From: a virus
Taxonomy: Duplodnaviria > Heunggongvirae > Uroviricota > Caudoviricetes
Virus record (IMG/VR): IMGVR_UViG_2718217787_000005
Length of the DNA: 64,000 nt
Strand: one strand, 5' to 3'
Shown in pieces: positions 6,001-9,000 of this stretch; within the stretch, counting starts at the first letter, position 1; each line of letters starts with the position of its first letter. The position numbers are program-made.

Positions 6001-9000
6001 CCAGGTACTGCTGCCGGGTAATAAGAAGACGAAGACCGGGCGGTTGTGGGCGTATGTTCGTGATGACCGCAATGCAGGGTCAGCGTTGGCACCTGCAGTG
6101 TGGTTCGCTTACAGCCCGGACAGAAAAGGCATCCATCCGCAGACTCATCTTGCCTGCTTCAGCGGTGTGCTGCAAGCGGATGCGTACGCCGGGTTCAACG
6201 AGCTGTATCGCAATGGTGGGATAACGGAAGCTGCCTGCTGGGCTCATGCCCGCCGAAAGATCCACGATGTGCACGTCCGCATCCCGTCAGCACTGACGGA
6301 AGAAGCCCTGGAGCAGATCGGTCAGTTGTACGCCATAGAGGCGGATATAAGGGGAATGCCGGCAGAGCAGCGGCTTGCTGAACGTCAGCGAAAAACGAAA
6401 CCGTTGTTGAAATCCCTGGAAAGCTGGTTGCGTGAAAAGATGAAGACCCTGTCGCGACACTCAGAGTTGGCGAAGGCGTTCGCGTACGCACTTAACCAGT
6501 GGCCGGCACTGACGTACTATGCGAACGATGGCTGGGTGGAAATCGACAACAACATCGCTGAAAATGCCCTGCGGGCGGTCAGTCTGGGTCGTAAAAACTT
6601 CCTGTTCTTCGGCTCTGATCATGGTGGTGAGCGGGGAGCGCTACTGTACAGCCTGATCGGGACGTGCAAACTGAATGACGTGGATCCAGAAAGCTACCTT
6701 CGCCATGTGCTTGGCGTCATAGCAGACTGGCCGGTCAACCGGGTCAGCGAACTGCTTCCGTGGCGCATAGCACTGCCAGCTGAATAACACATCCCCGTCA
6801 ATACGGCCCTCGCTGTACGCTTACACACAGTGCTGTGTTTATTCTGTTGTTTATGCCAAAAATAAAGGCCACCATCAGGCAGCCTTGTTGTAAATGTTGC
6901 AGGTATCAAGTAAGTAATTAGATGGAGCGCCATAAATTATGAATTCATCGTTTGTCGGGTCCATCTCCATCTCTTGTCCTATTGCCATTCTTGCGTCAGT
7001 GTCGTCAGCGGCGAAGCATAAAACAGCCCACGCACCCATTGTTTTAAAAAGAACTGCAATTGGCTGTGGTTTTACTGAATTTGCGTTAGCGCGAAAATCA
7101 CAAATCGCACTTTCATGAAATTCCATATATCACCTCAAATAAGTGGTTTGCTGCCTAATTTCATTTTCTGGCGACCAACACAAGTCATCTTGCTGTCAGT
7201 TGTTTGGATTTACGGTAGCCTGCCGCGTAAAGAGCTACATTTGGAAGACAAGTTGAGCCTTCATATTTTCTGGTCAACGTTGTCAGTGTTATTACTTCTG
7301 CTCTCATTGCTGGTTTGCGTTTGCATTGTAAGACCACTCGTGATGGGGTTGGCCTGTGTAGTTTGTCGGAGCTAATCGCCTCCTGACTTTGCAGGTTTGC
7401 GCGACGAGCTCTACGGCGAGAAGCTGCGGTGCCTTTAAATTCTGTTTTTCTGGACATAGATTCCTCCCGAATAAACTTTGGCGATGCAATCTCGAAGCTC
7501 CTCCTGAGACGGTTGCTTCGGCATTGCATCCCACAGCTTATGTGGTTGGGTGATCTGGCTTTTCAGCCACGTAGTCGAGAGTCGACGTTGTTTAAAGAGC
7601 CTGCCAGTCTGTTCCATTTGGCTTCCAGCGTCCTGCTGATGGTTAAATAGTACGATATGTACTTCACTTGGTCAATACAATTTGTTCTAAAACGGGGCGT
7701 TTTTTTACAACGCTTTGTATTTAATAGTATTGTTTTTTAGCGTGGGTGTATTGCCTCGGCGATGTAAGGAGAGATCAGAATTGCGTTGTTTAGTGAGTTG
7801 TATCTATTTATTTTCCAATAAATACAATTGGTTATGTGTTTTTTTGGGCGAGAGGAAAAGAAAACCCGGCATGGAGGCCGGGTTGATGATTAGCGGTGTG
7901 GCCTTGAGCGATAATGCTCACACACATGTTCAAGATTTCCATGCCTTATCCGTTCATAGGCATTCACATGAACTTCTCGATCGAATTGGTCATTCAAATT
8001 GTATGTAGACATCTGTGTTTTCTCATATTGGCGGCAGCCCTACAACCGCTTGAAAAAATGTACCAGACGCGCTAAGGTTACATCGCAAATATTGTGTACC
8101 TTAACAAGGGCTCCTTTTGGAGGCTCTGGTTAAACAGCATCAATGTCGGACTGGGGAGTTGGACATTGTGCTGAATGCTTTTGCATTATTGAGGCCGAAC
8201 GTAAACCTTCAGAATTGAAGAGATGCGTTCGGCTTCTTCGTTTGTGATATCGTTAGGAATGCCTTTAATCGTTACTGTAACCCCTGATTCAGGTCGAAGA
8301 ACTACTGGAAGATCATAGGTATGAAGTGCATTAGCCTTGCCTTCGACTTTTGTTGGTTCGCCAGTCAAATCTTTTTCCTCACTGGATTCTTTGTCAATCG
8401 GAGTGTATGGGATTTCTTCACCAGACTGGAAAGCTACAAACTTTTTGATTGCACTTTCCATGCGGCTTTTATATGCAGTAATGCTGCTGTCGCTAGGCTT
8501 CGGCTCAGTTGCGTTGATGTATCGCTCGGCAAGCTCATTCACATCAAGCTGAGTAACATCACCCATTTCCTCTTCTTGGACTACCGTTAAGAGGCGAGCG
8601 GATGAGTTTTTTAAATTTCGAGCGGTGGCCTCCTTCATTATGTTCAGCGACATAAGCTCTTCAAGGAAGTCCTTGAATGCCTGCACGCTAACGTTTGACT
8701 TTGCCATTTGCTCTCTCTCTAAGTTATTGACTCAGATCGAGTTTATCCAGGAATTGATTTGCATGCAAGACTCAAGTCTTGAGAATTTCCGTTCAAGATC
8801 CACTCTCAATAAAAAAGGCCGCACCTCTGCGACCTTTCATCTCCTAAATCTCTTTTCTCTTACCTAAAGAAACAGCAGGCTGGGTCAGCCCTAACAACTT
8901 CAAGTGCATCGGTCAGAGAAAGCTCCGTGCTATACAGGTGTTATTTCATATCTTTTTGCATCCAATAAATTTTCCATCTGTCCAGAGAGCGGATGCACTT

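Follow-up and report, generated by a model that had tools for sequence, protein, structure and literature searches.

What does a Shiga toxin (Stx) phage carry between its repressor gene and its leftward early promoter, and why has one gene of this cargo resisted deletion? We address these questions for the open reading frame (ORF) ORF23, which encodes a 173-aa protein (ECs1184) in the phage record IMGVR_UViG_2718217787_000005 (64,000 nt, hereafter the window, whose coordinates are used in all comparisons). The window is an Sp5/VT2-Sakai-type Stx phage, and its segment 7600-9250 shows 100% identity to VT2-Sakai (Sp5), Stx2 II, the Morioka Stx1 phage, and about 40 other Stx phage records. Working with an MG1655(Sp5) lysogen, Mondal et al. 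obtained 43 in-frame Sp5 mutants by sacB allelic exchange; the only two Sp5 deletions not recovered were those of ORF23 and ORF21, and both genes were proposed to be needed for stable lysogeny (PMC5155283). A 2025 study detected ECs1184 by mass spectrometry in the UV-crosslinked RNA-associated proteome of native, uninduced Sakai cultures, with an enrichment just below significance (false discovery rate, 0.065; PMC7618764). ORF23 is known from earlier work as an ORF that lacks a characterised function and could not be deleted, and our literature search found no further paper naming ECs1184.

We find that 7853-8838 is a self-contained accessory cassette (moron) in the cI-OL hotspot of this Sp5-type Stx phage, a conclusion that is well supported by sequence comparison, and that it is lysogen-linked cargo of the cI-N hotspot. 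We read the cassette tentatively, and with less than even confidence, as a lysogen-expressed addiction or toxin-antitoxin-like unit with an RNA-gated small effector, for which we infer a mechanism below.

A terminator-bracketed cassette between cI and OL

In the direction of transcription, the cassette consists of the following parts.

8811..8838, minus strand: upstream intrinsic terminator and 5' boundary of the cassette, AAAGGUCGCAG-AGGU-GCGGCCUUU plus a U tract
8766..8781, no strand assigned: perfect 16-bp palindrome CAAGACTTGAGTCTTG, overlapping the putative -35 element, a candidate operator
8740..8768, minus strand: putative sigma-70 promoter, TTGCAT-17-TAAACT (-35 at 8768-8763, -10 at 8745-8740)
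8186..8707, minus strand: ORF23, 173 aa, the same gene as VT2-Sap23, ORF c63, and ECs_1184 (ECs1184)
8135..8173, minus strand: hairpin H0, just past the ORF23 stop codon, with 12-13-bp arms and a 14-nt loop
8031..8130, minus strand: RNA core, with P2 (8130-8125/8067-8062), P1 (8122-8119/8114-8111), P3 (8104-8099/8077-8072), P5 (8049-8045/8035-8031), and pseudoknot P4 (8110-8106 with 8042-8038 in the P5 loop)
7890..8012, minus strand: 40-aa gene of type T1, MSTYNLNDQFDREVHVNAYERIRHGNLEHVCEHYRSRPHR, PHROG 21154
7853..7884, minus strand: downstream intrinsic terminator, found by scan, the 3' boundary of the cassette, insulating OL/pL/N

This anatomy, running from a terminator through a putative promoter with a palindrome, ORF23, a pseudoknotted leader, and a micro-protein gene to a second terminator, is well supported by the sequence evidence. 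The original prediction had described a single gene for a 173-aa protein forming an insulated moron between cI and N. Its insulation holds, with homology breakpoints at the terminators, but the cargo is a module of protein, structured RNA, and micro-protein, since both the structured RNA (8031..8173) and the 40-aa gene had been overlooked. The two terminators it had placed on either side of the gene are borne out by fold energy, with -15.9 kcal/mol for the upstream hairpin (8838-8813 plus U6; z = -4.5, 0 of 200 shuffles equally good) and -14.3 kcal/mol for the downstream hairpin (7884-7863 plus the U-rich tail UUUUCUUUUCC; z = -5.3). The upstream terminator has a 26-nt core that hardly varies even in Proteus and Serratia prophages, and its sequence GGTCGCAGArrTGCGGCCTTTTTT is nearly identical in loci of Salmonella, Proteus, and Serratia that have different genes upstream; AACCCGGCC..GCCGGGTTTT lies 3' of the small ORF in the loci of RNA variants B and C (see below) for which the downstream sequence was read.

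With respect to mobility, Salmonella prophages and phage vB_SosS_Oslo, which have other repressors, share about 88-89% DNA identity with the window from 8835 to 7855, while their flanks are unrelated. Since these homology limits coincide with both terminators, we delimit a mobile cassette at 7855-8838. E. coli phage contigs with a cI that is 48-71% identical and a different OL and N carry the cassette at 97.8-99.6% DNA identity and encode the same ORF23 protein; homology stops at 7849-7861, that is, at the downstream terminator, in L025 and L036, and extends to about 7761-7770 or past the stretch compared in other E. coli contigs with a different cI. Further afield, in Salmonella, Serratia, Cronobacter, Yersinia, and Morganellaceae, an S24 repressor precedes the ORF23 homologue, either immediately or with one gene in between, and an N-type antiterminator is located downstream of the homologue in all of these except the Yersinia locus. 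Distant relatives occur in Yersinia phage YP3 (after an excisionase gene and a 430-aa ORF, probably an integrase, and beside gin), near a MobA relaxase on a metagenomic contig, and beside varied early genes on IMG/VR contigs. Among complete E. coli genomes, 234 of 5426 carry the cassette (235 matching records, all but two of which, i.e., 233, show at least 99% identity), and a scan of species-representative genomes returned one locus only. Two marks of autonomous cargo are present, namely its own terminators on both sides and a mosaic presence with breakpoints at the cassette ends.

Breakpoints at 8836-8840 in some O157 genomes were also considered as a cassette edge and rejected, as they reflect an IS1203 insertion and a deletion mediated by the insertion sequence (IS). 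In some O157:H7 genomes, IS1203/IS629 has inserted precisely at the junction of the upstream terminator with the putative promoter of the cassette (L012, strain 2149, at the equivalent of about 8836-8840), and in strain NE92 (L013) an IS-mediated deletion took not only the cassette but also N and some of the pL operon.

The surroundings of the cassette were mapped as follows.

9209..9910, minus strand: cI
8866-9199, minus strand: DUF3024 pseudogene, between cI and the cassette
7648-7722: three OL operators, mapped from the AP005154 annotation
7675-7647, minus strand: pL, TTGACC-17-TACTAT
7185..7529, minus strand: N
6875-7126, minus strand: ORF21 (ECs1180), 83 aa, PHROG 2471 (function unknown), just downstream of N

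The OL operators have a TAC-N-GTA pattern in common with the OR operators at 9877-9951, and the placement of cI, OL/pL, and N puts ORF23 in the cI-OL interval, the slot of lambda rexAB, exactly where the original prediction had located it. The cI-N interval is a recognised mosaic hotspot, with rexAB and bstA among its cargo (PMC8585504). Compared across phages, it holds other cargo in 933W, where DUF3024, a RuvC-like gene, stk, and a small ORF run up to the annotated tM terminator, and the same cassette between different flanks in Salmonella and E. coli phages. The 370 nt from cI to the upstream terminator are not empty spacer but the DUF3024 pseudogene, which shows 81-85% protein identity to the intact copies in 933W and SH2026Stx1 and is broken across three frames, with an internal stop. 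Given the terminator between cI and the cassette, the cassette is probably driven by its own promoter and not by pRM.

Elsewhere in the window, the O/P replication region (10675-13005) and several later segments differ from Sakai Sp5, showing megablast gaps and 94-98% blocks; because of this divergence at 10675-13005 and beyond, we regard the window as Sp5-type and not as Sp5 itself. A 2442-bp IS66-family element, ISEc8-like, occupies 4383-6824 (ORFs at 4454-4855, 4852-5199, and 5249-6787); compared with Sakai Sp5, it is an insertion between ea10 and ORF21 that has duplicated 8 bp of its target.

The structured RNA and the exchangeable small gene

The order of gene, structured spacer, and small ORF recurs in about 30 diverse, non-identical loci, whose ORF23 homologues are 33-83% identical and over which the small-ORF slot was compared. 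Spacers measure 113-176 nt, a narrow range in which most loci have about 150 nt or slightly more (up to 176 nt) and the Serratia type has 113 nt. Immediately past the ORF23 stop codon, H0 folds with -16.6 kcal/mol (z = -5.9), and 97.9% of its cells are paired in an 8-sequence alignment (A6) of what we call variant B, comprising the window and the Salmonella, Cronobacter, Yersinia, and metagenomic copies. Across variant B, 95% of cells are paired versus 31-52% with the partners slid, compensatory changes affect 4 of 6 pairs in P2 and 3 of 5 in P5, and the minimum-energy fold of the window sequence on its own recovers P2, P1, P3, and P5. The 14 divergent copies of variant A form P1, a long-range P2, P2b, P3, and P5 plus a pseudoknot P4 (a segment in P2 with the P5 loop), with 91.6% of cells paired versus 34-43% slid and 18 covarying pairs versus 7.2 ± 1.7 in shuffles (0 of 500 as high).

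A variant-A covariance model matches right after the stop codon of the homologue in 21 loci (E = 1e-19 to 1e-45). This model does not score the window spacer, even with filters off, so that the variants are linked by shared architecture and short motifs (UAGCG, and a U-run plus CAAG) only. Variant C is made up of SH2026Stx1, L050, and YP3, and its first hairpin resembles a canonical terminator. The pseudoknot is kept in all three sequence variants; as it is invariant within variant B, it is supported by the corresponding pairing of variants A and C, in which the sequence is different. Invariant U-G pairs indicate that the folded strand is the gene-sense strand, and only a few bases separate the end of P5 from a conserved downstream GAGA/GAGG (Shine-Dalgarno-like), which is followed by the start codon of the small ORF. 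The window represents variant B of this module, having an ORF23 homologue, a spacer with P2 and the P5-loop pseudoknot, a small ORF, and a terminator.

Two further observations concern the hairpins and the reach of the RNA. The 14-nt loop of H0 is reverse-complemented in the window and L038 with respect to Salmonella and L046, with the arms unchanged, and P1 of variant A flips likewise (e.g., L054 versus L053, TCCTTTGGCGAGGA versus TCCTCGCCAAAGGA); these flips are recurrent small hairpin inversions. On a high-GC metagenomic contig (L079:1855-2000), a homologue of about 25% identity is followed by what is, by eye, a like architecture (P1, GGGUGGG/CCCGCCC, and CCGCGC..AACC..AGCGUGG), and the RNA element seems from this copy to reach far beyond Enterobacterales. 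A T-arm-like sequence downstream in L078 was rejected as a copy of the RNA element, as it looks like an att-site tRNA fragment.

The RNA could itself be the main product, for instance as a regulatory RNA released by processing, as a leader that senses a ligand or a protein, or as a ribozyme, with the ORFs being secondary or ribonucleoprotein partners. Between E. coli and Salmonella it is conserved as well as or better than the parts of ORF23 that encode the linker and the C terminus, and the multi-helix covariation, the pseudoknot in all three variants, and the borderline enrichment of ECs1184 in the RNA-associated proteome would agree with such a role. We nevertheless consider it quite unlikely that the RNA is the principal product. 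A search of Rfam 15 with the window (E ≤ 1) gave only a chance GadY match elsewhere, and the 11 homologous loci searched at gathering score gave nothing at the spacer; there is no complementarity of at least 14 nt to other sites in the window, and none above chance. Furthermore, the RNA always abuts the start of a selected small ORF, which fits a cis-acting leader, and the polynucleotide kinase (PNK) assay for RNA binding by ECs1184 was negative. ARAGORN found no tRNA or tmRNA, and 7600-9250 contains no tandem arrays except for a 2-copy 15-mer inside ORF23.

The T4 gene 32 operator and the rpsO/S15 operator are protein-bound pseudoknot leaders that control translation. The cassette RNA is similar in that its pseudoknot lies directly upstream of a ribosome-binding site, with a candidate binding protein encoded in the same transcript; it differs in that this candidate was negative in the one published RNA-binding assay and in having no sequence or Rfam relation to either.

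With respect to the small gene, the T1 protein is 92-95% identical (aa) to its Salmonella counterparts and 57% identical to that of SH2026Stx1, whose DNA cannot be aligned here. In five of the six other T1 loci measured, which come from E. coli, Salmonella, Cronobacter, Yersinia, and metagenomes, its start codon lies 173-174 nt past the ORF23 stop; in L076 and L077 the distance is 168-170 nt. In a conserved 25-codon block compared with L076, 19 of the 25 nucleotide differences fall on third positions, giving 18 synonymous versus 2 non-synonymous codons; since the substitutions are overwhelmingly synonymous, we conclude that the 40-aa ORF is a real gene under strong purifying selection.

The slot that T1 (40-44 aa) occupies is held in other loci by T2 (56-61 aa, PHROG 33859) or T3 (47 aa, with a weak treble-clef zinc-finger match), among which hhalign detects no similarity. 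Close relatives of ORF23 (77% identity) carry either T1 or T3, and the presence of unrelated types in the same slot, even next to near relatives, indicates that the slot is exchangeable. Across the loci compared, the module keeps ORF23 and the RNA constant and exchanges the micro-protein, its putative effector. T2 and T3 are basic (pI 10.4 and 9.0, respectively). The 40-aa protein has nothing significant in Pfam, NCBIfam, or PADLOC, the PHROGs matches are to families of unknown function only, and a profile search with the 40-aa family matches only other tiny ORFs.

ORF23 and its promoter region

ORF23 has no significant match in Pfam, NCBIfam, or PADLOC, and its sole family match is PHROG 2602 (function unknown). 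The original statement that the protein has no recognisable motif must be revised in view of the predicted structure. AlphaFold, run with an 88-sequence alignment (predicted local distance difference test score, pLDDT, 89.3), divides ORF23 into a four-helix core-binding-like domain (residues 8-94), a variable acidic linker (101-127), and a beta-hairpin plus helix (130-169). The N-terminal domain has an integrase core-binding-like (SAM-like) fold, for which the support from Foldseek against the PDB is weak (best E = 0.14) and the Pfam match sub-threshold (E = 0.047). ORF23 has this helical domain in common with tyrosine recombinases, but it lacks their catalytic R-H-R-Y domain (the chain ends at residue 173 with a 40-residue beta-beta-alpha domain, and there is no Phage_integrase match), and the protein is acidic (pI 4.85), its N-terminal domain included. 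MrpR/YopR of SPbeta and SroF of phi3T are integrase-fold repressors, of which MrpR and SroF retain both recombinase domains, while ORF23 does not.

The C-terminal domain carries the motif P-I-P-L-R-x-G-x-x-V-x-I-x-G-L-P-x-D-L-T-x-x-E-A-E-R-I. A profile search of PDB sequences and a large protein collection gave no informative or solved relative of it, and the relatives found are stand-alone 39-63-aa proteins only; Foldseek likeness of the domain to PDB entries was weak. For the whole protein, a hidden Markov model search retrieved 662 representative clusters (50% identity; E ≤ 1e-3), and nearly all of the best 150 of these are 157-208 aa long with near full-length matches. The named family members that were sampled are all annotated as hypothetical.

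The putative promoter, with a predicted transcript start near 8733, is conserved in position in four genera (e.g., TTGCAA-17-TAGAAT in Proteus and TTGACT-17-AAAAAT in Serratia), and its equivalent in the large divergent group of variant-A loci is TTGATC-17-TAAACT/TAGACT. The perfect inverted repeat that had been noted at 8766..8781 is indeed there and is unique within the window, with 0 expected (100 shuffles, one mismatch also allowed); it is identical in the E. coli and Salmonella copies, in which the adjacent upstream sequence is variable. Other variant-B loci have imperfect palindromes (AAGACT-N-AGTCTT), and variant-A loci (L051, L053, L054, L061, and L064-L067) have unrelated 13-bp inverted repeats, about 14 bp apart, which overlap the -35 element some 50-90 nt upstream of the homologue start (e.g., GGATTCATCGATC...GATCGATGAATCC) and whose arms co-vary between lineages. 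This recurring palindrome or inverted-repeat pattern suggests an operator. The arm and spacer geometry of the variant-A promoter repeats equals that of the window hairpin H0.

Expression of ORF23 in lysogens is plausible, considering its detection as a protein in Sakai and its non-deletability. ORF23 could instead be an ordinary phage gene without a role in the lysogen, the failed deletion being technical, and such a view can point to a deletion result that is negative evidence only and to a weak promoter match. We regard it as improbable, because the cassette, with a terminator on either side, belongs to neither the pL nor the pR operon, ECs1184 was found in cultures that had not been induced, and 43 other Sp5 targets were deleted by the same method. 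The near-identity of the E. coli copies noted above speaks against it as well.

The proposal of Mondal et al. that ORF23 maintains lysogeny by acting on the phage circuitry would explain the same phenotype by one of two routes. ORF23 might repress its own promoter via the palindrome, so that its loss would lead to leftward read-through into pL/nutL/N, or it might keep early genes silent in the manner of the integrase-fold master repressors of SPbeta-type phages. We consider this unlikely, given that the same cassette is paired with different cI, operators, and N, that relatives are found outside immunity regions, and that lysogeny maintenance leaves the conserved RNA and the micro-protein slot unexplained. 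ORF21, for its part, shows no co-occurrence with the ORF23 family outside Stx phages, which also speaks against the proposal. The natural cassette-loss strain is uninformative in this respect, as N was lost too.

A possible addiction cassette

The addiction reading is preferred because it accounts for the non-deletability of ORF23, the independence of immunity type, the constant protein and RNA next to an exchangeable slot, and the insulation by terminators. Under this reading, the upstream terminator would stop the cI (pRM) transcript, and the weak sigma-70 promoter with its overlapping palindrome would drive a leftward transcript in the lysogen, comprising ORF23, then the pseudoknotted RNA of about 150 nt, and then the 40-aa protein, with the strong downstream terminator shielding pL and N. 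The RNA leader would limit the amount of micro-protein that is translated, and the acidic, two-domain ORF23 would repress or neutralise the micro-protein, its target being the micro-protein itself, the palindrome, or the RNA. To lose only ORF23 would then be harmful and counter-selected.

Several observations weigh against this reading. Neither protein resembles a known toxin, antitoxin, or defence family in Pfam, NCBIfam, PADLOC, or PHROGs, and the ORF23 and 40-aa genes are 173 nt apart, unlike tightly coupled type II pairs. The T1 micro-protein of the window is neutral (pI 7.0), without a membrane segment or toxin-like mark, and the acidity of ORF23 argues against simple DNA or RNA binding; in the PNK assay, tagged ECs1184 performed no better than the green fluorescent protein control (PMC7618764). 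The putative promoter is weak with respect to the consensus (3/6 and 4/6) and was missed by a promoter scan. Furthermore, the failed deletion is a negative result that has other readings, e.g., prophage induction or read-through into N, and the mass-spectrometry signal could come from a spontaneously induced subpopulation.

The same addiction or toxin-antitoxin-like logic could also serve abortive infection or exclusion, and the preferred reading therefore overlaps with one, suggested by the original prediction, in which the cassette is an anti-phage system (abortive infection or superinfection exclusion); ORF23 and the RNA would then sense or regulate, and the small protein would be the effector. 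The slot is the hotspot of rexAB and bstA (PMC8585504) and, in 933W, of stk; the architecture is that of a moron with a variable effector slot beside a constant module; and the family is wide, patchy, and carried on mobile elements. Yet none of the 5027 PADLOC-DB v2 models matches either protein (E ≤ 1), the sole published phenotype is non-deletability, position in a hotspot is weak evidence, and integrase and relaxase contexts would suit any accessory cargo. We hold a dedicated anti-phage function to be possible and, on balance, rather doubtful.

Compared with known systems, the cassette resembles lambda rexAB (and timm) in being leftward, accessory cargo in the slot from cI to OL/pL that is thought to be lysogen-expressed, with a terminator protecting pL and N (PMC8585504), but searches of Pfam, PADLOC, and NCBIfam show no sequence or domain likeness of its proteins to RexA or RexB, and it adds a structured RNA and a micro-protein. 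BstA of the Salmonella prophage BTP1, encoded right downstream of the prophage repressor like the present cargo, is highly expressed in lysogeny and has its own self-immunity element, aba (PMC8585504); that element is a DNA site and not a folded RNA, and the cassette has no KilA-N domain. Stk of 933W lies in the same interval, but the cassette has no kinase. The likeness to type II toxin-antitoxin systems consists of two co-oriented genes with one promoter region and one terminator, a first gene that is non-deletable alone according to published work, a promoter palindrome that suggests autoregulation, an acidic first protein with a disordered linker, and a second protein that is basic in two of the three types. 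The cassette differs from them in the structured RNA of about 150-170 nt that separates its genes and in that neither protein belongs to a known family. Unlike type III (ToxIN-like) systems, it has no tandem-repeat RNA, its RNA being a single multi-helix unit.

Our literature searches turned up no account of where the cassette begins and ends, of its core-binding-like fold, of its conserved structured RNA, of a micro-protein gene under selection, or of a tripartite order that recurs throughout a large uncharacterised family. It is possible, though we would not yet call it likely, that the ECs1184 family represents a new, widespread three-part mobile-element system of a riboregulated addiction or abortive-infection class, built from a core-binding-fold protein, a pseudoknotted RNA, and an exchangeable micro-protein; if true, this would be a new class beside the known toxin-antitoxin and defence types.

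The cassette resides in the main Stx2a phage of E. coli O157:H7, and what had been a lone hypothetical protein becomes a defined module in which the protein stands beside a putative promoter with its palindrome, a pseudoknotted RNA, and a micro-protein. If the reading as an addiction or riboregulation system is correct, it would explain a ten-year-old phenotype, namely, why Sp5 lysogens cannot lose ORF23, would provide a new RNA motif and a protein family of 662 clusters for prophage accessory systems, and would have consequences for how stably Shiga-toxin prophages are maintained. If, on the other hand, lysogeny is under direct control of the cassette, the cassette would be relevant to toxin induction.

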